Positions 1 through 14,640 of a DNA stretch of 22,054 nt are shown here, piece by piece. The translations under genes were made by a program, and so were the position numbers. Every line of letters starts with the position of its first letter. Within the stretch, counting starts at the first letter, position 1. Source of the DNA: an uncultured bacterium (GTDB lineage: Bacteria > Abyssobacteria > SURF-5); contig CAZSKP010000035.1 of assembly GCA_964607485.1 (NCBI GenBank), positions 22,650-44,703 of the forward strand. Direction: 5' to 3'. Below the pieces are notes generated by a model that saw only the letters and a list, made by a program, of their open reading frames with translations, had not been told where the DNA came from and did no database searches.

Positions 1-1
1 T

Positions 2-280
2 CACGGGCTGCCTGATCATCTCCTGCGATGACATGACGATGATTTGAATCGAAGGATACAGGTGCCAAAACGGCTGAAGGGCCGTCTTATACGATTTGTC
101 CGGCGTCGATTCCTTGAGAATCTCCAAATCTGTGAAGATGAGGTCGTATCGCTTCCGGCGAAGCATATCGAGCGCGGCGTCGTTGTCGGACACCGCGTCA
201 ACCTTGTCTCGCTTGGCGAAGCATTCGCGAATTGTGCCACCGACCTCCGGCGTCTTCGATATTACGAGTACGGATTTCAT
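2..280 (-). CDS. N-terminal part (93 codons, runs off the window) of a response-regulator-like protein with an atypical receiver domain; probably a sigma-54-dependent (NtrC/Fis-family) activator
   Basis: Not in the ORF track. Manual translation from ATG 280 is open to the window edge: MKSVLVISKTPEVGGTIRECFAKRDKVDAVSDNDAALDMLRRKRYDLIFTDLEILKESTPDKSYKTALQPFWHLYPSIQIIVMSSQEMIRQPV. Receiver-like pattern (SVLVI...YDLIFTDL...IIVMS). Divergent from a sigma-54 promoter. The AAA+ domain is inferred, not visible. Confidence 0.75.
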   Translation of the reverse strand, partial: MKSVLVISKTPEVGGTIRECFAKRDKVDAVSDNDAALDMLRRKRYDLIFTDLEILKESTPDKSYKTALQPFWHLYPSIQIIVMSSQEMIRQPV

Positions 281-329
281 TCTATCCCCCACCCTATGCG
301 CGTGGTTTCTGCAAAAGCCTCCATAAAAA

Positions 330-539: not shown

Positions 540-554
540 TGGCACATTGTATGC
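540..554 (+). promoter_or_regulatory. Sigma-54 (RpoN) -24/-12 promoter
   Basis: TGGCACATTGTATGC: GG (541-542)-N10-GC (553-554), close to the TGGCAC-N5-TTGC consensus; about 50 bp upstream of the first operon ATG. Confidence 0.85.
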
Positions 555-603
555 CATCTTTTATAAAGATGGAGAATTACGCGAAGGAATTGAGAAAACG
601 CAC

Positions 604-867
604 ATGAGCGGCAGACCTACCGCGATACAGGGTGTGGTTATTCCGGTGGAATGGGACGGAAGAGGCAAGGTGCTTGCCGTCGCTATTTCCGCCCGGGACG
701 AATCGGAATACCGGGTCGAGAAATCCGGCAAAGGACTCAACCTTATGAGGCTCATTCACAGAGAAGTGAAGGTCACCGGCGAAGTGAAGGAGGAAAGCGG
801 AAAGAAGACAATCCGAGTGGAGGCGTACCGCCTGCAAAAGGTGCCGGACCAACAGTCAATTCACTAG
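604..867 (+). CDS. Small hypothetical protein (87 aa), beta-strand-rich, possibly OB-fold-like
   Basis: ORF 547..867 re-started at ATG 604 because TTG 547 lies inside the sigma-54 promoter. IQGVVIPVEWDGRGKVLAVAI...EVKVTGEV...IRVEAY has alternating beta-strand patterning. First gene of the operon. Confidence 0.75.
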   Translation: MSGRPTAIQGVVIPVEWDGRGKVLAVAISARDESEYRVEKSGKGLNLMRLIHREVKVTGEVKEESGKKTIRVEAYRLQKVPDQQSIH

Positions 868-896
868 GTCAAACTTGGGAGAGGATCCAGACAAGG

Positions 897-2213
897 ATGA
901 AGAAGGAATTAATCAACGCCGAAGAAGTTGAGCCTCCGGGTAGTAGCATCACATCGGTTTCATTGCAGGAGACAGTACCCGATGAACCGACAAATTCTCT
1001 GCGACAGCCTGCGCCGAAGCAACGCGGACGGGTGTCTTTCCGAACCGCACAACGTTTTAGGCGAGCAAGAAGAGGCGCACGAACCGTACAGTTTTGGAGA
1101 CGTTTTTTCACTGAGATAACAGACGCCGAGTGGGACGATTGGCGGTGGCAATTGGGCCACCGCATATGTAACCTAAAAGCGCTCGAACAGATCATCAGGC
1201 TTTCCGAGGACGAGCGAGCCGCCATCACCCGCTACAAGGGTTCGCTGCCGGTCGCCGTCACTCCGTACTATGCCAGCCTGCTCGATGCCGGCGATGCTTC
1301 TCAGCCTTTGCGACGCGCCGTGATTCCGGTGACCGATGAACACCTGCATTCGCCCGGTGAATTACGTGACCCGCTTGCAGAGGACGAAGACACCGCCGTG
1401 CCGGGGCTGGTGCACCGGTATCCCGACCGGGCGCTTTTCCTCGTCACCGACTACTGCTCGACCTACTGCCGCTATTGCACGCGCTCGCGGATGGTCGGGA
1501 GGCGGAACGGACACCGCTTCGGTCCGGAACAGTGGAACCGAGCCATCGCGCACATCGAGACGACGCCCGCTATCCGTGACGTGCTCTTGTCCGGCGGCGA
1601 CCCGTTGACCCTCCCCGACGAAAAACTGGAATGGTTGCTGTCGCGGCTTCGCCGGATTCCGCACGTCGAGATGTTGCGGATCGGGACGAAGGCGCCCGTG
1701 GTGTTGCCGCAACGCATCACTCCGGCGCTCACCAGGATGCTGAAGCGCTATCATCCCCTGTGGATGAGCATTCACTTCACGCATCCCGATGAGCTGACGC
1801 CCGAGGTCGCGCAGGCGTGCGAGCGCCTGGCCGACGCGGGCCTGCCGCTGGGCAGCCAGACCGTTCTGCTGAGCGGAATCAACGATGACGTGGAAACCAT
1901 GAAGCGATTGTTCCACGGCCTGCTTCGCATGCGGGTCAGGCCATACTATCTCTACCAGTGCGACCCGATACTGGGCTCGGCGCATTTCAGGACTCCCGTT
2001 TCAAAGGGCCTGGAGATTATCCAGGGCCTGCGGGGTCACACGACCGGATATGCGGTGCCGCACTACGTCATCGACGCGCCCGGGGGCGGCGGCAAAATCC
2101 CGCTGCTCCCCGAAATGGTTGTCGGCCGCGACGGCGACGACCTGCTGTTGAGGAACTACGAGGGGCATATCTATCGTTATCCCGACGGCGGGGGCGAGAC
2201 GAGGAACAGTTGA
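897..2213 (+). CDS. kamA: KamA-family radical SAM/PLP enzyme (lysine 2,3-aminomutase-like), 438 aa
   Basis: WDDWRWQL, GLVHRYPDRALF, CxxxCxxC (CSTYCRYCTR), LLSGGDPL, IHFTHPDE, SQTVLL, PYYLYQCD, YVIDAPGGGGKIP (PLP lysine). Start moved to ATG 897, downstream of the previous gene and purine-rich RBS-like sequence. Confidence 0.93.
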   Translation: MKKELINAEEVEPPGSSITSVSLQETVPDEPTNSLRQPAPKQRGRVSFRTAQRFRRARRGARTVQFWRRFFTEITDAEWDDWRWQLGHRICNLKALEQIIRLSEDERAAITRYKGSLPVAVTPYYASLLDAGDASQPLRRAVIPVTDEHLHSPGELRDPLAEDEDTAVPGLVHRYPDRALFLVTDYCSTYCRYCTRSRMVGRRNGHRFGPEQWNRAIAHIETTPAIRDVLLSGGDPLTLPDEKLEWLLSRLRRIPHVEMLRIGTKAPVVLPQRITPALTRMLKRYHPLWMSIHFTHPDELTPEVAQACERLADAGLPLGSQTVLLSGINDDVETMKRLFHGLLRMRVRPYYLYQCDPILGSAHFRTPVSKGLEIIQGLRGHTTGYAVPHYVIDAPGGGGKIPLLPEMVVGRDGDDLLLRNYEGHIYRYPDGGGETRNS

Positions 2214-2238
2214 AATGCAGCGTGACGCTGAAAATAAA

Positions 2239-3303
2239 ATGAAGATAGGGCTGACCTACGACCTGCGTCAGGACTACCTCGACGAAGGGTACGGCGAAGA
2301 AGAAACGGCTGAGTTCGACCGGCCGGATACAATCGAGGCAATCGAACGCGCCCTGCACGAATTGGGTTTCGATACCGACCGAATAGGAAACGTTCGGAGC
2401 CTGACGCGCCGCATTGCGGCGGGCGACAGATGGGACATGGTGTTCAACATCGCCGAAGGCGTCAGGGGCTTCGGAAGAGAGGCGCAGGTGCCCGCGCTGC
2501 TCGAGGCGCACGACATCCCCTACACCTTCTCCGACCCGCTTGTCCTGTCACTCACGCTCCACAAGGGCATGACCAAGCGCGTCATCCGCGACCTCGGTAT
2601 TCTCACGCCGGATTTTCGTGTCGTGGAGACCGAACTCGACGCGGCGAGAATCGACCTCCCCTTCCCCCTCTTCGCCAAGCCGGTGGCCGAGGGGACCGGA
2701 AAGGGAATCACCGCGCGCTCGAAAATCACGGACAAGAGCCAACTGGTCTCGGTGTGCAGAACGCTCTTGGAGCAATTCAGGCAACCGGTCCTTGTCGAAA
2801 CGTTCCTGCCGGGCCGCGAGCTCACCGTGGGGATTCTCGGCACCGGAGCCGAGGCCGCCGCGATAGGCGCGATGGAGGTCATGCTCCGCGACGATGCCGA
2901 ACCCGACGTCTACTCTTACTGGAACAAGGAAAACTGGAGACAGTTCGTGGAATATCGTCTGGTGGATGACGCAATGGGAGAACGGGCGAAAGCGGTCGCT
3001 CTGGCTGCATGGAGGGGACTAGGCTGCAGGGACGGCGGACGCGTCGATTTGCGGGCCGACATGTATGGCATGCCGAACTTCATGGAAGTCAATCCGCTCG
3101 CCGGGCTTCACCCCGAGCACTCCGACCTCTGCATCATCGCCACCAAGGTCGGCATGAGGTACAGCGAACTCATCGAGGCCATAGCCCTGTCTGCCCTCGA
3201 CCGGTATTCGATAGCGAGAACAACACATGAGCGAACCGATTATAGGCATCCTTCACAACGAACCGGCCCCGCCGGGACACGCCTTCTCGGAAGCGTCTCT
3301 TGA
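2239..3303 (+). CDS. D-Ala-D-Ala-ligase-family ATP-grasp ligase (paralog 1)
   Basis: VFNIAEG, IPYTFSD, LHKGMTK, FPLFAKPVAEGTGKGI, VETFLPGRELTVG, GRVDLR, MEVNPLAGL. Lacks the Ddl N-terminal GGxSxE motif. Alternative ATG at 2215. Confidence 0.88.
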   Translation: MKIGLTYDLRQDYLDEGYGEEETAEFDRPDTIEAIERALHELGFDTDRIGNVRSLTRRIAAGDRWDMVFNIAEGVRGFGREAQVPALLEAHDIPYTFSDPLVLSLTLHKGMTKRVIRDLGILTPDFRVVETELDAARIDLPFPLFAKPVAEGTGKGITARSKITDKSQLVSVCRTLLEQFRQPVLVETFLPGRELTVGILGTGAEAAAIGAMEVMLRDDAEPDVYSYWNKENWRQFVEYRLVDDAMGERAKAVALAAWRGLGCRDGGRVDLRADMYGMPNFMEVNPLAGLHPEHSDLCIIATKVGMRYSELIEAIALSALDRYSIARTTHERTDYRHPSQRTGPAGTRLLGSVS

Positions 3304-4264
3304 TGTTCTCACACAAGCGGAAGCCATCGAAACAGCCCTCAAAGAGATGGGATACCCTTCGACTCGAATCCCCTTTACGAGGGACCTGAGCGCCTTCCTT
3401 CAAAGGATGGCGGGTGAAAAGGTGGAGATGGCGTTCAATCTGTGCGAGACCGTGGACGAGAACCCGCAACTTGCGGGACACCCGGCCGCCGTGCTGGAGC
3501 TGATGGGGATTCCCTTTTCGGGTTCGCCGTCGCCGGCCATCACGCTCACGACGGATAAGCTCATGACGAAGCGTCTCCTGAAAGCGAAAGGGATAGGAAG
3601 CCCGAACTACCTCGTCTACAACGGAACCGCCGCCTTCCACGCGGAGGCGCTGACGTTTCCCGTCATCGTCAAGCCGAGGTTTCAGGACGCCAGCATCGGC
3701 ATCGACCAGGAATCGGTCTTCAGCAGCGTCAAAGAGCTCCACGCGAAAGTCGGCAAGCTGTTTGACCGTTTCGGGACGCTGCTGGTCGAGGAATACATAG
3801 CCGGCAGAGAGTTCAATATCTCGCTGCTGGGGCATCCCTCGCCGAAGGCGCTTCCCGTTGCGGAGATCGATTTCTCCGGTTTTCCCGAGGGCCTTTTCCC
3901 GATAGTCGGATACAAGGCCAAATGGGACACGTCGTCCCCCGAGTACCGGCACACCGCCCGCCGGTTTCCGGAGGACCTGCCCGATGCGCTGCGAAGGGGT
4001 TTGGAACAGACGGCGCTCGAGTGTTTCCGTCTGTTCATGCTCAGGGACTATGGTCGGGTTGACGTTCGCGTCGACCAGGCCGGGCAGATTCACGTGTTGG
4101 AAATCAACGCAAACCCATGCCTGAGTCCCGACGCAGGGTTTGCGGCGGCCGCTGAACGCGCAGGCATAAACTATTCCAAGATGGTTGGGCATTTTCTGGA
4201 TTTCATTATCCAAAGGTCACACGAACATGATTATCAGACCCATCGTTTATCAGGACAGAGATAA
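3227..4264 (+). CDS. D-Ala-D-Ala-ligase-family ATP-grasp ligase (paralog 2)
   Basis: AFNLCE, IPFSGS, TDKLMTK, FPVIVKPRFQDASIGI, VEEYIAGREFNI, YKAKW, RDYGRVDVR, LEINANPCLS. Confidence 0.9.
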   Translation: MSEPIIGILHNEPAPPGHAFSEASLDVLTQAEAIETALKEMGYPSTRIPFTRDLSAFLQRMAGEKVEMAFNLCETVDENPQLAGHPAAVLELMGIPFSGSPSPAITLTTDKLMTKRLLKAKGIGSPNYLVYNGTAAFHAEALTFPVIVKPRFQDASIGIDQESVFSSVKELHAKVGKLFDRFGTLLVEEYIAGREFNISLLGHPSPKALPVAEIDFSGFPEGLFPIVGYKAKWDTSSPEYRHTARRFPEDLPDALRRGLEQTALECFRLFMLRDYGRVDVRVDQAGQIHVLEINANPCLSPDAGFAAAAERAGINYSKMVGHFLDFIIQRSHEHDYQTHRLSGQR

Positions 4265-4799
4265 GATACTGCGCCTGCTGAGGCAGAGAGGCACCTTCGG
4301 CGAGGCCGAGATTGGTGTCGCCATGGAGGTCGTGGACGAGGCGCTTCAGCGCCCCGAAAGGAGAGATTACAGGATCTATTGCGCCTGTCCCGGTCCCGAG
4401 GAGCTCGCCGGATACGTTTGTTTCGGTGTCATCCCGATGACAAGCGATTGCTACGACCTGTACTGGATCGCAGTGGATGAGAAGTTTGCGGGAACAGGGG
4501 TTGGCGCGGCACTTCTCTCGTTCATGGAAGAGTCGGCCGCGAACGAACACGTCAGGAGAATCTATATCGACACCTCATCGACGCCTGCTTACGAGGCAGC
4601 TCGTTCGTTCTACAAGAAACATCACTATGATGTCGTATGCGTGATGAACGATTTCTATCGCCCGGGCGACCACAAGCTGATATTCATGAAAGAGGTACGC
4701 AGCGTCGTCGCGCCCGGCGTCGGAAGCGTCTATGCAGGGGAGATGCCGCGCGACGAGCAGGGATGCGATTTCCATGTTTCGCATACGCAGAATTTATGA
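4227..4799 (+). CDS. GNAT family N-acetyltransferase (190 aa)
   Basis: YDLYWIAVDEKFAGTGVGAALL (acetyl-CoA motif A) and DTSSTPAYEAARSFYKKHHY. ATG 4227 chosen because MIIRP is a typical GNAT start. Confidence 0.88.
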   Translation: MIIRPIVYQDRDKILRLLRQRGTFGEAEIGVAMEVVDEALQRPERRDYRIYCACPGPEELAGYVCFGVIPMTSDCYDLYWIAVDEKFAGTGVGAALLSFMEESAANEHVRRIYIDTSSTPAYEAARSFYKKHHYDVVCVMNDFYRPGDHKLIFMKEVRSVVAPGVGSVYAGEMPRDEQGCDFHVSHTQNL

Positions 4800-6513
4800 C
4801 GACGGCGTGCCCGTCAACAAAGCGGCAATCGAGGAAGTCCAGAACATCCTCCGGACACAATTCAGCGCTCTGTCCGAAGAGGAAATTACAACGCTTCCCG
4901 AACGACTGCGAAACCCGCTGAAATACCGCTTCCGCTCTGTTCTCTTTGTCGCCGACGACCAACAGGGGCATGTCAAAGGGTTTGCCCACCTGTTCCACGC
5001 GCCCGACCTGAATTTCTGCTATCTCGATTTCATTTCCACGGCCCGGCACAGGATAGGCGGCGGCATCGGCGGCGCACTGTACGGCAGGGTTCGCGAGCAC
5101 GCGCGTTCGCTGAACGCGACGGGCCTGTTCTTTGAATGTCTGCCGGACGACCCGAAGCTGTGCAAGGATCCGAATGTCCTGAGACAGAACGCCGCCCGGC
5201 TGCGATTCTATGAACGTTACGGCGCCCGACCCATCGCCGGCACCGCCTACGAAACCCCGGTGAAGCCCGGCGACGACTGCCCGCCGTACCTTGTGTATGA
5301 CGACCTGGAACGGAACACGAAACTGCGGCGCGACGCGGCCCGCTCCATCGTCAAGGCAATTCTGGAGAGGAAGTACGGAGATTTATGCCCGCGCGAATAC
5401 GTGGACATGGTCGTGGCCTCATTCAAAGACGACCCGGTAGCTCTGCGGGCACCACGATACCGCAAGAGCAAGCCTCTGCGCGAGACGACCCGGCTACGAT
5501 GGGTCGAACGACGTATCGCTCTCGTTGTTAACGACAAGCACGAGATTCATCATGTGCATGAGCGGGGTTACGTCGAGTCGCCCGTCAGGATAGGCTCGAT
5601 ACTCAGAGAAATCCAGCCGACCGACATGTTTGAAAAAATGGAGCCCCGGCGTTTCGCCGAAAAACACATTACGGCCGTGCACGACGCCCGGTTCGTCGAT
5701 TATCTGCAGAAGGTGTGCGCAAATGTCGAGCCCGGAAGGTCCGTCTATCCCTACGTGTTCCCCATTCGTAATGCGGCGCGTCCTCCGAAGGAGCTGCCCA
5801 TTCGCGCGGGGTACTATTGCATCGATACGTTCACCCCTCTGAATCAAAATGCCTATCTTGCGGCCAGAAGAGCCGTTGACTGCGCGTTGACTTCCGCCCA
5901 GGCCATCCTCGACGGCTATCGTTTCGCGTACGCCCTCGTCCGTCCGCCCGGGCATCATGCCGAGCGTCATTCGTTTGGGGGATTCTGCTATTTCAACTCG
6001 TCGGCGATCGCCGCGCACTATCTCAGCGCCCATGGGAAAGTCGCCGTCATCGACATAGACTATCATCACGGAAACGGAACGCAGAACATCTTCTATGAAC
6101 GTTCCGACGTGCTGACAATTTCCGTCCACGGGCACCCCCGCCTGGCCTATCCCTACTTCAGCGGGTTCGAAGACGAGACGGGAGGCGGCCCGGGTGAAGG
6201 TTTCAACGTAAATGTTCCCCTTCCCGAGCATGTCAACGGAGAACGCCATCGGGAGGTGCTCGGCAGGGTTCTGAGGCGGCTGAGAGGCTTTCAGCCGACA
6301 TTCGTCGTCATCGCGTTTGGTTTGGACACCGCGAAGGCCGACCCGACGGGCTCGTGGGATTTGAGCGCGAAAGATTTCGAAGCAAACGGGAGGATAATCG
6401 GAGGACTGGGATGTCCGCTGCTCATCGTCCAGGAGGGTGGATACAGAACCCGATCGCTCGGGGTAAATGCGCGGCACTTCTTCCAAGGATTATTGGCGGG
6501 TTCTCAATTGTAA
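4774..6513 (+). CDS. Fusion of an N-terminal GNAT-like domain and a C-terminal Zn-dependent histone-deacetylase-family (acetylpolyamine amidohydrolase-like) domain, 579 aa
   Basis: N-terminal: YLDFIST, RIGGGIGGALY, RLRFYERYGA. C-terminal: ESPVRI, RPPGHHA, GGFCYFN, DIDYHHGNGTQ, SVHG, GLDTAKADP, QEGGY. Confidence 0.9.
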   Translation: MFRIRRIYDDGVPVNKAAIEEVQNILRTQFSALSEEEITTLPERLRNPLKYRFRSVLFVADDQQGHVKGFAHLFHAPDLNFCYLDFISTARHRIGGGIGGALYGRVREHARSLNATGLFFECLPDDPKLCKDPNVLRQNAARLRFYERYGARPIAGTAYETPVKPGDDCPPYLVYDDLERNTKLRRDAARSIVKAILERKYGDLCPREYVDMVVASFKDDPVALRAPRYRKSKPLRETTRLRWVERRIALVVNDKHEIHHVHERGYVESPVRIGSILREIQPTDMFEKMEPRRFAEKHITAVHDARFVDYLQKVCANVEPGRSVYPYVFPIRNAARPPKELPIRAGYYCIDTFTPLNQNAYLAARRAVDCALTSAQAILDGYRFAYALVRPPGHHAERHSFGGFCYFNSSAIAAHYLSAHGKVAVIDIDYHHGNGTQNIFYERSDVLTISVHGHPRLAYPYFSGFEDETGGGPGEGFNVNVPLPEHVNGERHREVLGRVLRRLRGFQPTFVVIAFGLDTAKADPTGSWDLSAKDFEANGRIIGGLGCPLLIVQEGGYRTRSLGVNARHFFQGLLAGSQL

Positions 6514-6531
6514 GGAAGGGTTTTGTGGCTC

Positions 6532-6593
6532 TGGGGACTGTCCCGGATTTACGGGCCGCGTCTTATGCGGCCGTAGAATCGGGACTGTCCCCA
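6532..6593. repeat. 62-bp REP-like palindrome
   Basis: TGGGGACTGTCCCG...CGGGACTGTCCCCA (13/14 inverted match) with inner arms GATTTACGG/CCGTAGAATC and GCCGC/GCGGC; begins 19 bp after the HDAC stop. Confidence 0.7.
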
Positions 6594-6644
6594 TCGTGGG
6601 CCAAGTATGAGACAGATAATCTGAATGGTTTTTGTGAGGATGCC

Positions 6645-6854
6645 ATGAAAGACAAGACCATAATATGCGTTCAATGTCAATCCCCATTCATATTCGGCGT
6701 CGCCGAACAGGAACGGTTCCTCGCCCGGGGGTTCGACGCTCCCAAACGCTGCCCTGAGTGTCGCGAACGCAAATCCAGAACGCCCGAAACGAACAAGAGA
6801 TGGAAGGAAAAAGGGAGACACAGGCACGGTTCGAGAAAGGCGGCGTTCGAATAG
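6645..6854 (+). CDS. Small zinc-ribbon protein (zf-trcl-like), 69 aa
   Basis: MKDKTIICVQC...F...EQERF...GF..PKRCPECR, the CxxC-x-PKRCxxCR signature; GAGGA RBS before ATG 6645; basic tail. Confidence 0.85.
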   Translation: MKDKTIICVQCQSPFIFGVAEQERFLARGFDAPKRCPECRERKSRTPETNKRWKEKGRHRHGSRKAAFE

Positions 6855-7043
6855 CCTGCTCTGCCGGCATATGCCACGCGAGTATCGGCGGACCCAACAC
6901 CACCTCCAGCACCCCACGTTTCCCTGAAGAGCTGAGGACCGGCGGGCGTCCAACAGGGGCAACGCTCATTCCGGCAACTGACATGAAAACGCAAGAATTG
7001 TTTCTTCGATGAGCAAAAAGTAGGTGCGAGAAGGATTACGTCG

Positions 7044-8501
7044 GTGAATCTTTTCGAGAAAGACGATTTAAGGAATTCGATTTTCGAGGGCGTGTTTGCC
7101 AACGTGTTCGCAACCCTCACGGGAGGCGTGTTCCTCACGGGCTTTGCGCTTTACATGGGGATGGACGAGTTCATGATAGGGCTGTTGGCTTCGATGCCTT
7201 TCATCGTCGCAGCCATCCAGTTGCCGACCTCATTTCTCATGGAGAAGACCGGCAGGAGAAAAGGTTTTTGGTACTGGGGCGCACTGCTTACGAGAGTGAC
7301 GTGGATTCCGGTTCTCATCGTTGCGGTGCTGCCCATCTCGACATCGGGGAAATACGCGGCCGTCCTCGGCCTGATTTTCTTCTCCTACTGCGCCAACTCG
7401 GTCAGCAGCGTCTCGTGGCTCTCCTTGATGTCCGACCTGGTGCCGGACGGAATCCGGGGAAGCTTCTTCGGGACGAGGAGCATGCTGTGCGGCGCTGCCG
7501 GCATGGCCGCAATGCTCGTCTTCGGGAAGGCCCTCGACTTCATGGAGGCCCACGCCCACGGAGGCTCATCGCTGGGATTCGGCGTGGTGTTCGTGGCGGC
7601 CGTACTTTTCGGCGTGGTGAGTTTGCGATTTCTGAAGCGGGTGTCGGAGCCCAAGCTTGCGCAGATTGAAGCCCACCGCTCCTTTGGAAAGGAGTTGACG
7701 CTTCCCTTCAAGGAGCCCAATTTCAATAAGTTCCTGATCTTTGTTTTTCTGTGGAGTTTTTCCGTCTTTTTCGCGGCTCCGTTCTTCACGCTCTATTTTC
7801 TCCAGGACTTGAAGTTCAGCTACGGCTTCATCGCCGCGTTGGCCACGATATCCGGTGTGGCCGACCTGACGGGAATGCGGCTGTGGGGCAGAATTTCCGA
7901 CAGCGTCAGGAATAAGGCGGTCATCCGCTTCTCAAGCTGGGTGGCCATCTTGGTGCCTCTGGCCTGGGTTTTCGTCCGACCCGGCAGTATTGTGTTGCCG
8001 ATTGTTTTCAACGTGATAGGCGGCGGTTTTTGGGCGGGCATCAATCTTTGCATGAACAACCTGCTGCTGGAAATTTCGCCGAAGGAAAACAGGGCCTTGT
8101 TCCTGTCGATGTATAACATCGTCGGAGGATTGGGCGCTGCGGCGAGCCCCATCATCGCGGGCCTGCTCCTCACTTCCATGAACGGACACGTCAGCCTGTG
8201 GCGTTGGGAGGCGCTGCCCATTCAGGTTATCTTCCTGATATCCACCGTGCTCCGATTCCTGAGCTATCAACTGTTCAAGTATGTCCGCGAACCGGAGGAG
8301 GTCGAGCCGGGTCAGGTGGTCAGGATAATTTGGAGTGTCAGGGGATTGAACGTCGCGACCGGATTCAGCTATCTGCTCCATCCGTTCGTCGAGATTGCCA
8401 GAAACAACCGCAAGGGGGCGCACAACGGCGGTCCCGATAAGAGTGAAGAACCCGTTGGCTCGCAAGAGTTGCATCAAGAATGCGGAAGCGCTCGTCTGTG
8501 A
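7044..8501 (+). CDS. MFS transporter
   Basis: About 12 hydrophobic segments; MEKTGRRK and WGRISDSVRNK motif-A-like loops; AGAAGGA RBS before GTG 7044. Confidence 0.88.
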   Translation: MNLFEKDDLRNSIFEGVFANVFATLTGGVFLTGFALYMGMDEFMIGLLASMPFIVAAIQLPTSFLMEKTGRRKGFWYWGALLTRVTWIPVLIVAVLPISTSGKYAAVLGLIFFSYCANSVSSVSWLSLMSDLVPDGIRGSFFGTRSMLCGAAGMAAMLVFGKALDFMEAHAHGGSSLGFGVVFVAAVLFGVVSLRFLKRVSEPKLAQIEAHRSFGKELTLPFKEPNFNKFLIFVFLWSFSVFFAAPFFTLYFLQDLKFSYGFIAALATISGVADLTGMRLWGRISDSVRNKAVIRFSSWVAILVPLAWVFVRPGSIVLPIVFNVIGGGFWAGINLCMNNLLLEISPKENRALFLSMYNIVGGLGAAASPIIAGLLLTSMNGHVSLWRWEALPIQVIFLISTVLRFLSYQLFKYVREPEEVEPGQVVRIIWSVRGLNVATGFSYLLHPFVEIARNNRKGAHNGGPDKSEEPVGSQELHQECGSARL

Positions 8502-8555
8502 TGTGTGCCGGCGTCCAGCCCGCTGAAATGGTTGAACTCAGAAGGGAGGATACAA

Positions 8556-8765
8556 ATGGAACACATGGAACGAGAAATCGGAGAAGCGGCTGGAAAAATC
8601 TGGAACGCGTTGAATGCAAAGGGAGCGATGTCGAAGGCCAGGCTCGCGAAGGTAACAGCGCTCCCGACTGCCCGCGTGGACCAGGGCATCGGCTGGCTCG
8701 CCCGCGAGGGGAAGCTTGCCGGAAAGGAAACAAAACGGGGCGAGCTTCTCTCGTTAAGAGAATAG
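8556..8765 (+). CDS. Small winged helix-turn-helix protein (DUF2582-like), 69 aa
   Basis: IGEAAGKIWNAL...GIGWLAREGK signature; GGAGG RBS before ATG 8556. Confidence 0.85.
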   Translation: MEHMEREIGEAAGKIWNALNAKGAMSKARLAKVTALPTARVDQGIGWLAREGKLAGKETKRGELLSLRE

Positions 8766-8824
8766 TCTGAATCGCGTCTCGCCCGCTACGGCGCGGCCGG
8801 TAAAATTGGGATGAAGGGGATTCG

Positions 8825-8833
8825 TGTTATAAT
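8825..8833 (+). promoter_or_regulatory. Extended -10 promoter element for the K+ uptake genes
   Basis: TGTTATAAT (TGn-TATAAT), about 38 bp upstream of ATG 8871. Confidence 0.5.
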
Positions 8834-8870: not shown

Positions 8871-10253
8871 ATGTCCCGCTTCGCCGACAAGAAAAACAAC
8901 TTCGGCAGAAGGCCTCTGTCGCCCTCAACTGTCCTCGTGGCGGGTTTTGCCGCAACCATCGCCATCGGAACCTCCCTGCTCATGCTGCCCGGGATGTCCG
9001 TGGAGGGCAGGCTGGGACTCGTGGACGCCCTTTTCACCGCCACATCGGCCGTATGCGTGACGGGATTGGTGGTCGTGGACACGGGCACTCACTTCACGAA
9101 AACCGGCCAGTGGATCATTCTCTTGTTAATCCAAGTCGGAGGACTGGGCATATTCACGTTCTCAACTTTCTTCATGCTCATCCTGAGGGGCAAGACGACG
9201 CTGAAGAGCCGGCTGCTGCTTCAAGAAACGATGACGCATTTTCCCTATCGAAACCTGCTAAGGCTGTTGCGGAACATCCTGCTGTTCACGTTCGGCGCGG
9301 AAGCGCTGGGAGCCCTCTGCCTTTGGCTCGCTCTCAGGGAAAGATTCGGCGCGGCCAGCGCCGCGCACTTTTCCATATTCCATTCTGTGTCCGCCTTCTG
9401 CAATGCCGGATTCTCGCTGTGGACAAACAACCTTGAAGATTATTGCGGCAACGTCCCGGTGTCTTTGACCATCATAGCTCTCATCGTTTTGGGAGGGCTC
9501 GGGTTCACCGTCGTGACGGAGGTCGGCGGAAAACTTCTTCGAAAGCAGTCCGAGTTCAGCCGGCTCTCGTTAAATTCGCGCGTGGTGCTCACGACCACCG
9601 TTTCGCTCATCATCGCGGGCGCTCTGTTGTTCTGGCTTCTGGAACGTTCCAACGCGCTCGCGTCGAGGCCTCATTCCGAGCAGGCGCTGGCATCCGTCTT
9701 CCAGTCGGTCACGGCTCGTACGGCGGGATTCAACACGATACGCACGTCCGACTTGACAGGCGCGACGCTGTTCGTGCTGATCGGCCTGATGTTCATAGGG
9801 GCCTCGCCGGGGTCCGTGGGCGGCGGAGTCAAGACGACAACGTTCGCTATCTACGTCGCGATGGTCGTCTCCTATCTCAGGGGGAAAGAGAACGTGGAGA
9901 TGTTCGGCCGGACGGTCCCCGCTCAGATTTCCTCGAAGGCGACGGCAACTCTTGCAACGTCGTTTGCGCTCGTTGTCGTTTCCGCACTGCTGATTCAGAT
10001 ACTGGAAGGCCACCGGCTCGATTCGCCGACGCACGTGCACTTTCTCGACTGGCTGTTCGAGGTCGTGTCGGCCTATGGAACCGTCGGGCTTTCGACCGGC
10101 GTGACTCCCGCACTCAGCAAGGCCAGCAAGTTGGTCATCGTCGGCACCATGTTTGCCGGGCGCGTCGGCCCGCTCGGGCTGGCCCTTTCTCTGTTCGGAC
10201 GCGAGGCCGCGCAGCGCTTTAAGTATCCGGGAGAAAATGTTATGATCGGTTAG
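8871..10253 (+). CDS. ktrB: TrkH/KtrB-family potassium uptake membrane subunit
   Basis: Four pore-loop glycine motifs (SAVCVTGL, SAFCNAGF, TARTAGF, SAYGTVGLS), plus GASPGSVGGGVKTTT and GRVGPL. Confidence 0.92.
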   Translation: MSRFADKKNNFGRRPLSPSTVLVAGFAATIAIGTSLLMLPGMSVEGRLGLVDALFTATSAVCVTGLVVVDTGTHFTKTGQWIILLLIQVGGLGIFTFSTFFMLILRGKTTLKSRLLLQETMTHFPYRNLLRLLRNILLFTFGAEALGALCLWLALRERFGAASAAHFSIFHSVSAFCNAGFSLWTNNLEDYCGNVPVSLTIIALIVLGGLGFTVVTEVGGKLLRKQSEFSRLSLNSRVVLTTTVSLIIAGALLFWLLERSNALASRPHSEQALASVFQSVTARTAGFNTIRTSDLTGATLFVLIGLMFIGASPGSVGGGVKTTTFAIYVAMVVSYLRGKENVEMFGRTVPAQISSKATATLATSFALVVVSALLIQILEGHRLDSPTHVHFLDWLFEVVSAYGTVGLSTGVTPALSKASKLVIVGTMFAGRVGPLGLALSLFGREAAQRFKYPGENVMIG

Positions 10254-10264
10254 GAGGATGTCGC

Positions 10265-10951
10265 GTGAAAAGGTTCGCCGTTCTGGGTCTCGGCAATTTC
10301 GGCTCGCAACTGGCCCGTTCGCTCGCTCAGAAGGGAGCCGAAGTTCTCGCCATTGACGTTGAAGAAGAGGCCGTGCTTGACATAAAAGACTCGGTCACGC
10401 AGGCCGTCGTGGCAAACGTCTCGGACAAGAAGGCCCTGCTCTCCTTGAACATCGACGCGTTCGACTGCGTCACCGTCAGTCTTGGCGACAAGGTGGGCGC
10501 TTCCATTCTGGTCGCTCAATTTCTCAAGAAGGTGGGCGTGAAGGAAATTCTCGTGAAGGCGATAAACGAGGACCATGCAGAGGCGCTCCAGAACGTGGGC
10601 GCAACAATCGTCGTGTTCCCCGAACGGGACATCGCAATAAAGATTGCCGACAGCCTGCTCACCCCAAACCTCATCGACTTCATTCCGCTCTCGGAAGGTC
10701 ACAGCATAGTCGAGATGACTCCCCCCTCGCAGTGCATCGGGAAGACGCTTTCCGAGATGAGGCTCCGCAACCGTTTCGGCCTGCAGGTGCTGGCCGTGAG
10801 GAGGGTGGCTGACTCAGAGGAGATCGAGATAGGAAAGCTGACTCCCGACTCCATCGTGATTCCGGATGCGACGTTCCGGGTGGAAAAGCACCACGTGCTC
10901 ATCATCATGGGAGAAAACAAGAATATCGAGAAGTTCCGGAAGCTTTCCTGA
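10265..10951 (+). CDS. ktrA: TrkA/KtrA-family RCK regulatory subunit
   Basis: FAVLGLGNFG Rossmann motif, VVFPERD, C-terminal TrkA_C (GKTLSEMRLRNRFGLQVLAV); AGGAGG RBS. Confidence 0.92.
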   Translation: MKRFAVLGLGNFGSQLARSLAQKGAEVLAIDVEEEAVLDIKDSVTQAVVANVSDKKALLSLNIDAFDCVTVSLGDKVGASILVAQFLKKVGVKEILVKAINEDHAEALQNVGATIVVFPERDIAIKIADSLLTPNLIDFIPLSEGHSIVEMTPPSQCIGKTLSEMRLRNRFGLQVLAVRRVADSEEIEIGKLTPDSIVIPDATFRVEKHHVLIIMGENKNIEKFRKLS

Positions 10952-11228: not shown

Positions 11229-13049
11229 TTATACGCTGAAGGCGTTATCAGGTATCTCGATGCAGCTGCGGTCCCTATTCGCGATGACTTTGGCCTTCAT
11301 CTCGACGCCGGGCAGGATGTTGCGTACGAAGAACTGGGCCGAGTGGATCTTGCCGGTATAGAAGGCGAAATCGACGCTGTCCTCGGCGAGACCGTCCATC
11401 TTGTCGGCCGCCACCGCAGCCTGCTCGATGAGCTCGCGGGCCAGCGCCACCTCTCCGAACATGTGCAGGTAGCGGGTGGCAATCGACATCACGTAGTCGA
11501 GGTCTCCCTCCATCGCGAAGCCCGCTATCTTCATGGTCGTTTCGAGCAGGGTCGTCTTCGCAGCGTCGAGCTGCTCGACGAGGTCGCCCACCTTCGCATG
11601 TGCGCGAAGGCCGTTGATGAACTCATCCAGCACGGTCATGTAGTTCTGCATCAGCACGCCGCCGCCGATGTTGAGCTTGCGGCCGATCAGGTCGGCGGCC
11701 TGGATGAAGTTCGTCCCCTCGAATATCATTGCGATTCGCGCGTCGCGGCAGTACTGTTCGACGGGATATTCCTGGCAGTAGCCGTAGCCGCCATAGCACT
11801 GCATGGCGACGGATGTCATGTCGAACGCCATGTCGGAGCAGTAGGCCTTGACCATGGGCGTCATGAGGTCCACGTAGCCCTGATAGAAATTCCGCTTCTC
11901 CTCGTCGGGATGCGCGTGGGCGAGGTCTTCATACATCGCCAGCCGATACGCAAACGCCCTCATCCCTTCAGCCATACACTTCTGCAGGAGAAGCATGCGG
12001 CGCACGTCGGCGTGTTTGATGATGGGCACGCGGGGCGCGTTCGGGTCCTTCATCGCCTTGACATCGACGCCCTGGATGCGTTCCTGCGAATACTGCACGG
12101 CGTTCTCGAATGCGGCGGCCGCGAGCGCGATTCCCTGAAGGCCGGTGGTGATGCGGGCCTCGTTCATCATCTGGAACATCTGCCTCATGCCCTTGTTCTC
12201 CACGTCTCCGAGCAGGTAGCCGCGGCAGGGGCCGTCTTCTCCGAAGTTGAGCGTGCACGTGGCGGAGGCCTTGATTCCCATCTTATGCTCGATGCCGGCG
12301 CAGGTGACGTTGTTGAAATCGCCGATGCTGCCGTCGTTGTTCACCCAGTACTTGGGTACTATGAACTGGCTTATGCCCTTCGTTCCGGGTGGCGCTCCTT
12401 CAATCCTGGCGAGCACGCCGTGGATGATGTTCGGAGTCAGGTCGTGGTCGCCCGATGTGATGAAGCACTTGGTGCCCGTGATGAGATAGGTGTCGCCGTC
12501 CTTCTTCGCCGAGGTGCGTATGTCGCCCACCGCGCTTCCCGCCTGCGGCTCGGTGAGACACATCGTGCCCTGCCACTCGCCGGTGTACAGCTTCTCGCAA
12601 AACAAATCTCGAATCTTGTCGGGACCGAAATTCTCGACCATGTGAGCGACGCCGGGGCCGGGAAAGTAGAGCATGAACGACGTGCACGCTCCGAAGAATA
12701 TCTCTCCGGCGCTCATGGCGATCACGCCCGGAAGCCCCTGTCCGCCCAACTCCGCGCTGTTCGACATCGAGATCCAGCCGTTTTCACAGGCGAGCTTGTA
12801 CGCCTTGTGGAACGCGGGCGGCGCCTTGACGGATCCGTTCTCGTAATGGGCGCCCTCTCGGTCCGCGTCCTGGTTGAGAGGTCCGAGCACCTCCTGCGCG
12901 AACTTGACTGCCTCGCTGATGATCATGTCGAAATCTTCGCGCGAGAAATCCTTGAACTTGTCAAGTTCGCATAGTTGCTCCGCGTTGAGCTGCTCGTTGA
13001 TAACAAAGTCGAGGTCGCGCTTGTTGGCCCGATAAAAATTATTTCCCAT
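11229..13049 (-). CDS. Long (606 aa) acyl-CoA dehydrogenase
   Basis: GTMCLTEPQAGSAVG, GTKCFITSG, EHKMGIKASAT, MMNEAR, QCYGGYGY, IFEGTNFIQA, and a C-terminal extension typical of the ~600-aa subfamily; GGAG RBS. Confidence 0.95.
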   Translation of the reverse strand: MGNNFYRANKRDLDFVINEQLNAEQLCELDKFKDFSREDFDMIISEAVKFAQEVLGPLNQDADREGAHYENGSVKAPPAFHKAYKLACENGWISMSNSAELGGQGLPGVIAMSAGEIFFGACTSFMLYFPGPGVAHMVENFGPDKIRDLFCEKLYTGEWQGTMCLTEPQAGSAVGDIRTSAKKDGDTYLITGTKCFITSGDHDLTPNIIHGVLARIEGAPPGTKGISQFIVPKYWVNNDGSIGDFNNVTCAGIEHKMGIKASATCTLNFGEDGPCRGYLLGDVENKGMRQMFQMMNEARITTGLQGIALAAAAFENAVQYSQERIQGVDVKAMKDPNAPRVPIIKHADVRRMLLLQKCMAEGMRAFAYRLAMYEDLAHAHPDEEKRNFYQGYVDLMTPMVKAYCSDMAFDMTSVAMQCYGGYGYCQEYPVEQYCRDARIAMIFEGTNFIQAADLIGRKLNIGGGVLMQNYMTVLDEFINGLRAHAKVGDLVEQLDAAKTTLLETTMKIAGFAMEGDLDYVMSIATRYLHMFGEVALARELIEQAAVAADKMDGLAEDSVDFAFYTGKIHSAQFFVRNILPGVEMKAKVIANRDRSCIEIPDNAFSV

Positions 13050-13187
13050 TGTTCTCTCTCCTTTGGAGGTCGGCCTGAGACTAACGACAATTTCTCGCTG
13101 GGAGATCGGACCGACTCAGCAGGTCCTACACGGTCATATTCTCACGGAGCGCCTGCTTTGGGGTTTTCGGTCCGTTTCACAATGCAT

Positions 13188-13196
13188 ATTATACCA
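13188..13196 (-). promoter_or_regulatory. Extended -10 promoter for the acyl-CoA dehydrogenase gene
   Basis: TGGTATAAT on -, in an AT-rich patch about 140 bp upstream of the ATG. Confidence 0.55.
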
Positions 13197-13233
13197 GAGA
13201 TTTTGAGAAATTTCCACTTTTTTGTGCAGTGCG

Positions 13234-13341
13234 TCATTTCACGCCGGAACTGCCCGCGGTGCTCACCCCCGCCGTTTGGGCTATTTTCGCGATATCCTTG
13301 ACCTCGATGCTCCCCTCCGAACCTTCGGTCCTGAGGGCGTC
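13234..13341 (-). pseudogene. 3' remnant of a homolog of the Fe-S gene at 14754-15902
   Basis: 13278-13341 matches 14765-14828 at 54/64 nt ungapped. It translates DALRTEGSEGSIEVKDIAKIA versus DALRAEGLEGSIEVKDIAEIA and runs to a TGA at 13234. Confidence 0.7.
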
Positions 13342-13369
13342 GGCGGACTCGGAGGAGGTCATAAGCGCT

Positions 13370-13585
13370 GAGGCGGGTCTTCACGGCACGTTGCCCAAAC
13401 CAGTTCTTGTCATTGCGAGGGAGGGTCAACGACCCGACCGAAGCAATCTCGAAGGCGTTCCCCCCTTGCCATCGGGATTGCTTCGTCGCCCGAGCTTGCA
13501 GCTCTTTGCTCCTCGCAATGACAAGGTACAGGAACGATCTCGTGTGAGAAATCATTCGGGTAACAGGCCATGAAGGCCTGACCCC
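13370..13585. repeat. Nested palindromic REP/MITE-like element, copy 2 (inner part inverted relative to copy 1)
   Basis: Outer IR GAGGCGGGTCTTCA (13370-13383)/TGAAGGCCTGACCCC (13571-13585); inner IR TGTCATTGCGAG (13408-13419)/CTCGCAATGACA (13512-13523). 13408-13448 is the exact reverse complement of 11087-11127. Confidence 0.75.
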
Positions 13586-13606
13586 TCCTTTCGGGCTTTT
13601 CTTGCC

Positions 13607-13936
13607 CTATTCCTGCTTCAGTGTGTCCATGGCAATGGCGCCGTGGGCCATCGAGGCGCCCGCGCTCATGGCGGCGGCGACGATAATCGCCTCTGCGATC
13701 TCGGAGTCGGTGGCGCCGGACTCTTTGGCTTTGCGCGCGTGGCCGTCGATGCAATAGGGGCATCGGGTGATGTGCGCGCAGGCAACCGCGATGAGTTCCT
13801 TCGTCTTCGCGGACAGGTCACCTTCAGCGAAAGCCATCATGTTGAAATTCATGAAGGCTCCCAGCAGGTCGCCCTTCAGCTCCGCAAGCTTGCCTATCGA
13901 AGCCAGCGCGTCCTTGTGATAAAAATGCTCACTCAT
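13607..13936 (-). CDS. Carboxymuconolactone decarboxylase / AhpD-like protein (109 aa)
   Basis: LSAKTKELIAVACAHITRCPYCIDGH...GATDSEIAEAI; CxxC plus His; GGAGG RBS before ATG 13936. Confidence 0.88.
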   Translation of the reverse strand: MSEHFYHKDALASIGKLAELKGDLLGAFMNFNMMAFAEGDLSAKTKELIAVACAHITRCPYCIDGHARKAKESGATDSEIAEAIIVAAAMSAGASMAHGAIAMDTLKQE

Positions 13937-14013
13937 GTTTCCTCCTGCATGCGGTGAAAAGATATCTTCGGTTATCGGCAGTTTCAAAAAGGGTTCCGGT
14001 TGTTCCGACACGC

Positions 14014-14640
14014 TCATAGCCCGAGCGATTCTCTATAGGCGGGCACTGCGGCCAGCGGATTGTGGTCGTTCTGCCTGTCTTTCACGGCCAGTATGGTTAC
14101 CGGCGCCTCTGAGTGCTTGATAAAGATGGTATCATCACCGACGCACAGTCCGACGGCAACGTTCAGGTCGGTCTTGTACTTATTCAGAAGCAGCGCCTGG
14201 CCCACGGGATTGCACTGCGGCTGACGCGCGTCTTTGACGATTTTGTCTTCCTCGCTCAGCCCGATGTCGTCGGAACAGATGCCGCCCGTCATGCAGCAGG
14301 CCGAGACCACCTCGAAGCCGCCCCCTTCGAATACAGCCGAGATCACCTTCGCTTCCTTGAGGAACAAAGCGCAGAACGCCAGCCCCAATCGCTTGAACCC
14401 CATGTTTCCGGCGTAGATCATTGTTTCCTCTATCCGATTCTTGCTCAAGCCGGACTTCTTCCAGGTTCTGGCCACGGCTCTGAGCATCTCGGCGGCCTCG
14501 GGTTCTGCGATGACGCTTCGAACGTCATCGAACGTGCCCGGCGTAATTATCATCGGGCATATTTCCGTGCCCTCCTGGGAGAAACCTTTCATGCATATCC
14601 GTCGAGGACATTCGGCACACTTCGGATACTCCGCTTCCAT
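14014..14640 (-). CDS. DUF1847-family putative metal-binding protein (208 aa)
   Basis: Cys-rich N-terminus, RIEET, KRLGLAFC, CNPVGQALLLN, GLCVGDD, SEAPVTILAVKDR; AAGGAG RBS before ATG 14640. Confidence 0.82.
   Translation of the reverse strand: MEAEYPKCAECPRRICMKGFSQEGTEICPMIITPGTFDDVRSVIAEPEAAEMLRAVARTWKKSGLSKNRIEETMIYAGNMGFKRLGLAFCALFLKEAKVISAVFEGGGFEVVSACCMTGGICSDDIGLSEEDKIVKDARQPQCNPVGQALLLNKYKTDLNVAVGLCVGDDTIFIKHSEAPVTILAVKDRQNDHNPLAAVPAYRESLGL

Follow-up and report, generated by a model that had tools for sequence, protein, structure and literature searches.

A conserved cassette of kamA, two Ddl-like ATP-grasp ligases and a GNAT that probably joins beta-lysine into a small acetylated amide

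Introduction

To our knowledge, few fates of beta-lysine are known. Excerpts of PMC3543383 describe the AblA/AblB pathway for N-epsilon-acetyl-beta-lysine in methanogens and its prediction in Pelobacter carbinolicus. As regards translation, N-terminal stretches of acidic residues and proline are reported, in excerpts of PMC11162784, PMC8129111 and PMC12856214, to destabilise the ribosome; according to the same excerpts, ribosomes stall strongly at PPG, and selection acts against CCC/U-C. The literature searched for a cassette of kamA, two ligases and a GNAT yielded no description of one, and the words aminomutase, KamA, D-Ala, Ddl and deacetylase do not occur in the main text of PMC8939145. 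We describe here such a cassette, which probably joins beta-lysine into a small acetylated amide, the product being proposed from the genes themselves.

Organization of the Locus

ORF calling in the window (the whole stretch of 22,054 nucleotides analysed here) confirmed the open reading frames, their co-orientation and the sigma-54 site of a preliminary description of this DNA, and recovered exactly the overlaps of 77, 38 and 26 bp given there (ligase 1/ligase 2, ligase 2/GNAT and GNAT/fusion, respectively). The features are the following:

1..292, minus strand: 5' part of a gene for an NtrC-type sigma-54 activator (receiver domain in the window)
540..554, plus strand: sigma-54 -24/-12 promoter-like site (pattern match, enriched at related loci)
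604..867, plus strand: orf0, 87 aa, no known family, accessory (no Pfam or NCBIfam match)
897..2213, plus strand: kamA, KamA-family lysine 2,3-aminomutase (Pfam LAM_C and Radical_SAM)
921..941, plus strand: E-E-V-E-P-P-G element of kamA, codons 9-15, candidate translational pause/destabilisation element
2239..3303, plus strand: ligase 1, Ddl-fold ATP-grasp (Pfam Dala_Dala_lig_C)
3227..4264, plus strand: ligase 2, Ddl-fold ATP-grasp (Pfam Dala_Dala_lig_C)
4227..4799, plus strand: core GNAT (Pfam Acetyltransf_1)
4774..6513, plus strand: accessory GNAT-deacetylase fusion, HDAC fold (Pfam Acetyltransf_1 and Hist_deacetyl)
6645..6854, plus strand: zinc-ribbon protein, local companion (Pfam zf_Tbcl)
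7044..8501, plus strand: MFS transporter, local companion (Pfam MFS_1)
8556..8765, plus strand: winged-helix (wHTH) protein, outside the conserved cassette (Pfam DUF2582)

Gaps of 131 and 189 nt precede the zinc-ribbon and the MFS genes, respectively. An Rfam search of the window returned zero matches, and scans for sigma-70 promoters and terminators gave counts at chance level. The sigma-54 site follows the pattern GG-N10-GC (TGGCAC-N5-ATGC) and is faced by the divergent activator gene, which starts at position 292 and whose AAA+ and HTH parts lie outside the window, on the far side of an N gap; the NtrC gene is likewise divergent in G005/L108 and co-oriented in several other relatives. The pattern was found within 300 nt upstream of 22/68 related kamA and 6/12 orf0 genes, against 26/2280 random 300-mers. 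Since it was found in 0/36 phylogenetically broader loci, scanned within 450 nt, the putative sigma-54 control of the cassette looks lineage-limited. As for orf0, it occurs in 21/130 loci and accompanies the NtrC gene; its matches in the Atlas are nameless Thermodesulfobacteriota clusters, and the Atlas search left orf0 without a name and the GNAT of the fusion without a specific family.

Conservation of the Cassette

In the main set of 80 ligase-1 loci, which includes Desulfobacterota, Bacteroidota, Planctomycetota, Gammaproteobacteria and Acidobacteriota, ligase 2 is present in 78, kamA in 73 and the GNAT in 67. Among the 40 loci of a broad genome sample, kamA and two ligase domains were each found in 28, the GNAT in 20 and all of them together in 15; some of the loci from which the GNAT is absent, that is half of the 40, lie on short contigs. 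Natural fusions join kamA to ligase 1, ligase 1 to ligase 2, ligase 2 to the GNAT, and the GNAT-HDAC to the GNAT. An adjacent kamA is missing from 7/80 and 12/40 ligase loci, and a tailed kamA lies elsewhere in the genome in 5 of the 10 genomes checked with such a locus. The gene cassette is real and widespread, and its conserved unit consists of kamA, two Ddl-like ligases and a GNAT. The five enzymes plus MFS grouped together in the preliminary description are co-conserved as regards these four genes, and not as regards the accessory GNAT-deacetylase (13/80 loci) and the MFS transporter (8/130 loci); given this scarcity of the transporter at related loci, the export of the product suggested there finds little support. 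The zinc-ribbon and wHTH genes were found in 4/130 and 0/130 loci, respectively. Ligase 1 was matched at E<=4e-67, a cut-off picked after inspecting the matches, in 56/401 broadly sampled genomes and most of the relatives examined lie beside kamA, so that a metabolite common among sediment bacteria and other anaerobes may have escaped identification.

The Enzymes of the Cassette

The CxxxCxxC motif is kept in 78/78 KamAs, and the equivalents of D293 and D330, which we take to be lysine-binding, and of K337, presumably the PLP lysine, in 77/78. The protein scores 477.7 bits, under the equivalog cut-off of AblA (TIGR03820, 525.4) and above that of the KamA family (TIGR00238); it lacks the C-terminal extension and the Cys268 of C. 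subterminale LAM, and begins with a 56-residue disordered tail. From the intact active-site residues we infer that it converts L-lysine into beta-lysine. A search for KamD gave no match in this genome, and its control likewise matched nowhere.

The nearest solved family to both ligases, by sequence and by fold, is Ddl (TM about 0.77 for ligase 2). The residues K97, K144, E180, E187, K215, R255, D257, E/D270 and N272 of E. coli DdlB are kept in 24-25 of the 25 sequences sampled for each ligase, and R80 is invariant in ligase 1. Other positions differ from DdlB: H63->E, E68->R and L282->D in ligase 1; H63->E, Y216->W, G276->C, S281->A/G and L282->G in ligase 2. The H63->E change is found in 25/25 of each ligase, Y216 is replaced in both, and neither has Glu in the column of E15, the alignment register being uncertain there. 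On these alignments, both ligases are predicted to retain the ATP machinery, with substrate pockets rebuilt and more acidic. Three kamA-ligase-1 fusions have Ala at the E270 equivalent, so that ligase 1 may be dispensable in them. A complex prediction with ligase 1, ligase 2, KamA residues 1-32 and ATP scored 0.00, and its controls did not fold.

The kinship with Ddl, together with the name 'putative D-alanine N-acetyltransferase' under which the solved structure 2R7H, an orthologue of the core GNAT, was deposited in the PDB, might suggest that the ligases make an unusual envelope dipeptide (a stem terminus or a bridge with beta-lysine) that the GNAT acetylates. We consider this very unlikely, since the ligases score 134.5/104.4 and 131.7/117.6 bits against Ddl cut-offs of 243/245.65 bits, D-Ala pocket residues (H63, Y216, S281 and L282) are changed, a separate ordinary Ddl is encoded in the same genome (on C13), and no mur/dcw genes are found among the recurring neighbours of the cassette. 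The same cut-offs and pocket residues speak against the possibility, foreseen in the preliminary description, that the ligases simply make D-Ala-D-Ala.

The core GNAT does not match the AblB model (TIGR03827), which found no AblB-type GNAT in this genome and whose control matched in 6/14 genomes. This bears on the idea that the cassette extends ablAB and serves mainly as a stress-solute route leading to N-acetyl-beta-lysine, or to an acetylated beta-lysine dipeptide, under salt or cation stress, an idea that overlaps with the amide proposed here and differs from it in purpose, the ligases being secondary. It would agree with the ablAB logic of a kamA with a GNAT (excerpts of PMC3543383), with the TrkH/TrkA potassium uptake pair detected by Pfam downstream in the window and with the CorA gene adjoining locus L182. 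However, the GNAT is not of the AblB type, ligase 2 is conserved at least as well as the GNAT (78/80 versus 67/80), and TrkH/TrkA occur in 2/130 loci, which makes this idea quite unlikely in our opinion.

The best PDB matches of the deacetylase domain are acetylpolyamine amidohydrolases (6PHR and 3Q9B, E 7.5e-72), and its catalytic motifs PPGHH, DxDxHH, GxD and EGGY are intact in 13/13 fusions, with one GLDP variant; the domain is closest to an acetylpolyamine amidohydrolase. Of the fusion-bearing genomes, 9/10 also have ligase 1, four of these unlinked. The peptide or polyamine conjugate envisaged in the preliminary description can be narrowed to some extent, the polyamine-like option being favoured by this resemblance. 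Genes of polyamine metabolism were detected at just 2 loci (107 neighbour ORFs scanned, out of 222 picked): an AdoMet decarboxylase gene adjoins L160, and agmatinase-family and arginine decarboxylase genes adjoin L178.

The Acidic-Pro-Pro Element

A conserved feature overlooked in the preliminary description is an E-E-x-E-P-P-G/S element, a conserved island within the otherwise disordered tail of the cassette KamA, present in 97/104 top homologues and in 65/78 KamAs of a second alignment count, and in 0/20 KamAs without an adjacent ligase; the motif matched once among the 10,307 frames of its own genome. In a comparison resting on a quick version of the kamA tree, the element is found in 39/46 loci where kamA comes first in the cassette and in 0/9 where it comes last; the scoring did not find the motif in seven kamA-first loci. 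The first Pro falls at codon 13 in 30/60, and D-P-L variants without Pro-Pro exist. Four loci carry the element again outside kamA, either within ligase 1 or in a small ORF upstream.

The codons are constrained as well. The Pro-Pro-Gly is here encoded by CCT CCG GGT, and the first Pro codon is CCT in 57/80 (22% expected; 46/199 in the flanking tail), as well as in 24/33 rows less than 75% identical. After Pro-Pro, Gly is GGT in 22/29 (32/112 in the flanking tail) and Ser is AGT in 33/37 (56/325), with p-values that overstate the bias because kin share codons; AGT stands in 3/7 among 33 lineage representatives (p=0.08, not significant). RNA structure is generally unsupported as the cause of this bias: no conserved pairing was found, the pairing at the element being no better than in synonymous shuffles in 17/33 and 34/81, and hairpins occur in just a Desulfobacterota subset. 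A programmed frameshift was also rejected, as the +1 and -1 frames close at a median of 16 and 11 codons, respectively, with no shared peptide. In 76/80 element windows, 4-6 of 6 residues are D/E/P, and the element combines the N-terminal D/E/P-rich window and the slow proline codons by which excerpts of PMC11162784 and PMC8129111 define pause elements. This fits a candidate sensor of the MgtL type, based on translational pausing or destabilisation; conservation extends to the peptide as well, which would also be expected of a protein-level role.

According to such a protein-level role, the acidic-Pro tail would be a peptide substrate, carrier or docking tag, either with beta-lysine loaded on Glu/Asp in a LysW/RimK-like manner or with KamA held for channelling. 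This would agree with the island in the disordered tail, the retention of the tail in kamA genes that lie apart from the ligases, the duplicated motifs of L034/L046, L150 and L158, the invariant R80 of ligase 1, and the stand-alone small ORFs of D-P-L-G form, with a ribosome-binding site, lying directly before lig2-lig1 in G038 and G070. Nevertheless, a protein-only role leaves unexplained the constraint on synonymous codons, the dependence on the first position and the motif within the N-terminal loop of ligase 1 itself in the ligase-first loci L180 and L184; moreover, the donor pockets look acidic rather than basic, and the core contains no peptidase (an M20 peptidase lies downstream in 4/80 loci). 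We regard it as unlikely.

A Pro-Pro motif at the head of the operon might also report the status of EF-P, with the ligases replacing EpmA in attaching beta-lysine to it. This would agree with EpmA passing its cut-off in only 5/30 cassette genomes, this one not included. However, the EF-P loops of the cassette genomes (23 read of 30) are mixed (PGKG, the Lys34 form expected for beta-lysylation, as well as PGNW, PGNK, PGNL and PGRY), that of this genome being PGNKRG, and efp lies near the cassette in 1/130 loci. On loops and linkage, EF-P was rejected as the ligase target; furthermore, stalling in kamA would lower, not raise, the beta-lysine supply, and the whole proposal is extremely improbable.

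Proposed Pathway

Because the core genes are co-conserved, the ligases are not ordinary Ddl enzymes and neither EpmA nor AblB was found in the genome, none of the outcomes named as refuting in the preliminary description was encountered, and its pathway is supported in part. In the scheme that we put forward, and that we hold to be somewhat on the probable side, the four genes lead to a beta-lysyl amide that is small, cationic and acetyl-capped, under an NtrC/sigma-54 drive and with tuning by a ribosome pause; what we observe are the genes with their conservation, the residues, the motif and its codon bias, and from these we infer all substrates, the product, the heterodimer and a role in regulation. 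KamA would supply beta-lysine from L-lysine, and ligases 1 and 2, probably as a heterodimer, would form amide bonds at the expense of ATP. The pocket residues hint that the acceptor of ligase 1 may have a basic side chain as well as a carboxylate, as in beta-lysine or lysine, and that of ligase 2 may be a roomier amine without a carboxylate, e.g., a polyamine. The core GNAT would cap a free amine, and the GNAT-amidohydrolase fusion, where present, would remove or recycle the acetyl group. In this lineage, transcription would be driven by the NtrC/sigma-54 system, and the acidic-Pro-Pro stretch with its slow codons near codon 13 would probably cause a ribosome pause or drop-off, which might adjust the expression of this tightly coupled operon to the state of translation or of cations, possibly through product feedback.

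A bolder version, which we consider doubtful, is that about one in seven broadly sampled genomes makes a polyamine-like beta-lysyl polycation via a Ddl-derived heterodimer, switched by acetylation and sensed on the ribosome by the acidic-Pro-Pro nascent peptide. If this is true, arrest peptides that sense polyamines would have a counterpart in bacteria, in the form of a portable element moving to whichever gene is first. The four enzymes, together with the solved GNAT structure, make the cassette directly testable, and, if the pause reading is true, synonymous recoding of the seven-codon element should change expression. If the element senses the product, it would both name the cellular role of the compound and provide a new ribosome-based sensor.

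Comparison with Known Systems

The cassette shares with ablAB a lysine 2,3-aminomutase and a GNAT in one operon; it differs in that its GNAT is not AblB and the two ligases look like obligatory partners, and its KamA, compared with AblA, falls below the cut-off, lacks the C-terminal extension and bears an N-terminal tail. The ligases share the fold and the ATP, Mg and oxyanion residues of D-Ala-D-Ala ligases (TIGR01205, PRK01372; E. coli DdlB), whereas they are paired paralogues, often fused, with replaced substrate-pocket residues. Glutathionylspermidine synthetase/amidase and the ATP-grasp amide ligases of peptide natural products presumably represent the same chemistry, in which an ATP-grasp enzyme joins an amine acceptor in amide linkage and a hydrolase is paired with it; compared with both, we take the cassette ligases to belong to another ATP-grasp branch, with beta-lysine coming from a radical-SAM mutase. 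Unlike the acetylpolyamine amidohydrolases 6PHR and 3Q9B, the deacetylase is fused behind a GNAT and is almost confined to ligase-1 genomes. Finally, the element has in common with the MgtL leader (EPDP), with intrinsic ribosome destabilisation and with the CCU-CCC-CCU pause of CadC, as presented in excerpts of PMC11162784, PMC12856214 and PMC8129111, an N-terminal position, acidic residues with proline and slow proline codons; with no attenuator structure found, it differs from them in standing mostly in frame with the first enzyme of the cassette instead of in a leader of its own.

Organization and conservation of the gene cassette

The nine frames of the preliminary description were all found on the + strand with labels matching our family scans; its overlaps of 77, 38 and 26 bp were borne out, the remaining gaps being 29, 25, 131, 189 and 54 nt. 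The features of the region are listed below (G000 is the window's own genome, C35 its contig CAZSKP010000035.1).

292 (start), - strand: NtrC-type activator gene, divergent from the sigma-54 pattern, extending out of the window and across an N gap
540-554: sigma-54 pattern
604-867, + strand: orf0
897-2213, + strand: kamA, followed by the genes for ligases 1 and 2
4227-4799, + strand: GNAT
4774-6513, + strand: GNAT-deacetylase fusion
6645-6854, + strand: zinc ribbon
7044-8501, + strand: MFS
8556-8765, + strand: wHTH
8806-8833: sigma-70-like site of the following pair
8871-10951: TrkH/TrkA potassium uptake pair
11229-21487, - strand: TetR-headed run (nitroreductase-ferredoxin, thiolase-like, CCG/FAD-oxidase/Fe-S, DUF1847, CMD, acyl-CoA dehydrogenase; family scan)
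G000:C35:13635-18491, upstream of and outside the window: alpha-2-macroglobulin-like protein, 1618 aa (label by eye)
G000:C35:19732-21441, upstream of and outside the window: ETF:quinone oxidoreductase-like gene (label by eye)

When ligase 1 was used as query, 117 relatives were confirmed. In the best 80 loci, on which the counts rest, ligase 2 is present in 78, kamA in 73 and GNAT in 67, so that the co-conservation proposed for the whole set holds for kamA, the two ligases and GNAT, but not for the GNAT-deacetylase (13, one partial), the MFS (6) or the wHTH (0); orf0 occurs in 17, NtrC in 15 and the zinc ribbon in 3. The gene order of the window is exactly repeated in one genome (G005) and nearly so in another (G004). 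A ligase-1 match at E<=4e-67, a cut picked after the results had been viewed (ordinary Ddl reaches ~1e-50), was found in 56 of 401 sampled genomes. A broader set comprises 40 loci from 39 of the best-scoring genomes outside the window's family, several contigs being short: 28 have kamA, 28 have two ligase domains, 20 have GNAT and 15 combine all of these.

Fused forms join kamA and ligase 1 (loci L040, L043, L088, L089, L093, L152), ligases 1 and 2 (L157 and many two-domain proteins), ligase 2 and GNAT (L073, L150), and GNAT-deacetylase and a GNAT (L155). The GNAT-deacetylase protein occurs in 10 of the 401 genomes, nine of which also possess ligase 1, unlinked to it in four; the tenth holds the most divergent fusion (41%). 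On the basis of the locus counts, the fused forms and this co-occurrence, the core consists of four genes, the GNAT-deacetylase is a dependent accessory and the remaining neighbours are local.

More distant ligase-like genes lie near divergent KamA-like genes (32% and 24% identity) in L115 (G023:C193:3643-6684) and L117 (G060:C103), which suggests sister cassettes. A protein of ~300 aa without Pfam match adjoins the cassette in two distant lineages (L178:6134-7057, L182:4523-5419); in L178 its neighbours are arginine decarboxylase and ligase 1, in L182 kamA and corA. The TrkH/TrkA pair accompanies 2 of 130 cassette loci, and the TetR-headed run appears to serve anaerobic oxidation of the fatty-acid or lactate type.

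Of the related kamA starts, 22 of 68 have the sigma-54 pattern no more than 300 nt away, as have 6 of 12 orf0 starts, against a control rate of 26 in 2280 random stretches; in the 36 more remote loci, a search of 450 nt did not find it. Genes for sigma-54 activators adjoin L145, L160, L166, L170 and L172. In the window's genome the NtrC gene is split by a 10-N scaffold gap just outside the window start (G000:C35:22640-22649), with its halves out of frame.

The ligases and the acetylation enzymes

Both ligases have the Ddl fold (the ligase 2 model has pLDDT 94 and TM ~0.77 to Ddl) and score about half of the Ddl cut-offs; a separate, ordinary Ddl is encoded on contig C13 of the same genome. A cell-wall dipeptide is a possible but rather unlikely product of the cassette. 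When 25 sampled members per family were compared with E. coli DdlB, the ATP, metal and oxyanion residues were kept in both, whereas His63 was replaced by Glu in all members. Ligase 1 also differs by Glu68->Arg and Leu282->Asp, with Ser281 kept, and ligase 2 carries Trp216, Cys276, Ala/Gly281 and Gly282; the C-terminal register of this alignment is confirmed and that at Glu15 uncertain. From these pocket residues and Ddl chemistry, we infer that both enzymes may take basic substrates, ligase 1 perhaps a carboxylate-bearing acceptor and ligase 2 a roomier amine.

Three KamA-ligase 1 fusions (L088:1-2256, L089:2245-4635, L093:6630-9020) have Ala at metal-binding E270 and Asp for the conserved Glu73, and their ligase domain is possibly dead. 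A separate family, found in relatives lacking the cassette (L110:6417-8420, L111, L112:6555-8528, L113), consists of ~660-aa fusions between a SAM methyltransferase and a Ddl domain that resembles ligase 2 (H63->E, Y216->W).

Among PDB entries the core GNAT strongly matches 2R7H alone (annotated as putative D-alanine N-acetyltransferase), and its acidic residues E28, E34 and D77 are kept. The closest relatives of the deacetylase domain are acetylpolyamine amidohydrolases, and its catalytic motifs are intact in 13 of 13 fusions. Of 222 neighbour frames, 107 were scanned, and genes for polyamine synthesis were found beside two loci, a hint at most of a polyamine link.

An acidic-Pro-Pro element at the start of KamA

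Residues 1-56 of KamA are disordered in the structure model; inside this tail the stretch E-E-x-E-P-P-G/S (codons 9-15, 921..941 of the window) is conserved in 65 of 78 locus KamAs (loose pattern) and in 97 of the 104 top homologues whose N-terminus is long, after exclusion of 8 short ones. Pro13 is invariant in the 79-row alignment, and the strict pattern matches one of 10,307 frames of the window's genome, namely kamA. The element spans two separate KamA clades (quick tree) and is absent from 20 of 20 KamAs without a ligase inside 1.5 kb; of the 10 genomes checked in which ligases and kamA are unlinked (one of them, G017, being actually linked), 5 have a tailed kamA elsewhere. When kamA comes first, 39 of 46 loci have the element; when kamA is last, none of nine does. 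Half of the 60 distinct cases (30) place its first proline at codon 13; in Bacteroidota it stands at codon 22-23. The most divergent KamA (L183) carries it at residues 2-6 with identical codons. Two ligase-first loci (L180, L184) have a similar stretch within the N-terminal loop of ligase 1, and in G038 and G070 a kamA-less lig2-lig1 pair follows a short ORF, 63 or 91 codons in length, which has a ribosome-binding site and bears a D-P-L-G form of the element; nothing resembling it was found in many other ligase-first loci. A role as peptide substrate or docking tag appears to us rather unlikely.

A truncated kamA of 184 aa (L055:7432-7983) retains the element ahead of intact ligases, in a genome that yielded no full kamA.

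CCT encodes the first proline in 57 of 80 cases, against an expectation of 22% based on the same genes, and CCT and CCC together account for 75; after the Pro pair, GGT encodes 22 of 29 glycines and AGT 33 of 37 serines, a bias whose p-values overstate its significance because related rows are not independent. Since the flanking tail gives lower fractions (CCT 46/199, GGT 32/112, AGT 56/325), the preference is not a general 5' bias. Among the 33 rows <75% identical, CCT (24/33) and GGT (12/16) recur and the AGT bias is not significant (3/7). In the long frames of the window's genome, Pro-Pro opens with CCT in 272 of 1205 cases, and the glycine of PPG is GGT in 7 of 97. RNA pairing beats synonymous shuffles in just 17 of 33 and 34 of 81 cases and gives no general explanation of the codon bias, although alternative hairpins cover the element in a Desulfobacterota subset; no conserved shifted frame was found downstream. 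Whatever likelihood the other readings leave falls to a site bound as DNA or RNA, or to simple tuning of copy number.

According to the available part of PMC11162784, N-terminal stretches with at least three D/E/P per six residues destabilise the ribosome, and PPG is among the strong motifs. The available part of PMC8129111 describes CCC/U-C as counter-selected and, for CadC, a copy number set by slow codons. In the element, four to six of six residues are D/E/P in 76 of 80 cases. Given the codon bias and this fit to the published sequence features, we lean slightly towards a cis-acting pause or drop-off site. A ribosome stall within the first coding frame would reduce expression, which would fit product feedback.

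Comparison with known systems

KamA aligns with the C. subterminale LAM (2A5H) at E 8.6e-138. All 78 homologues retain its cluster cysteines, and 77 retain the equivalents of D293, D330 and K337, the roles of these residues being presumed. Unlike that enzyme, it lacks Cys268 and the long C-terminus. A family of long KamA-like radical-SAM proteins (600-780 aa; L133, L134, L138, L140, L028:12874-14697) shows another cluster motif context and turns up repeatedly among these genomes.

The KamA of the window is the only one of its genome (97.5% complete), where neither EpmA above cut-off nor AblB was found, and it scores below the AblA cut-off. A search for KamD gave no match there, and its control matched nowhere either. 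A pure osmolyte role is possible but rather unlikely. EF-P fails as ligase target: EF-P loops are mixed across cassette genomes, a single one of 130 loci has efp nearby, and 5 of 30 cassette genomes possess EpmA as well. The sole efp linkage is in L152, where an EarP-like gene (label by eye) and efp, at 2025-3707, immediately precede the fusion of kamA with ligase 1.

Searches of the open literature turned up no account of either the cassette or the element; PMC3543383, in its available part, covers ablAB alone. Judging from sequence, the cassette is real and widespread and probably a beta-lysine amide pathway of known enzyme families, apparently undescribed so far; the element would be a new candidate for translational control, to be set beside MgtL, in which proline and acidic residues act as a Mg2+ sensor (PMC12856214, available part).
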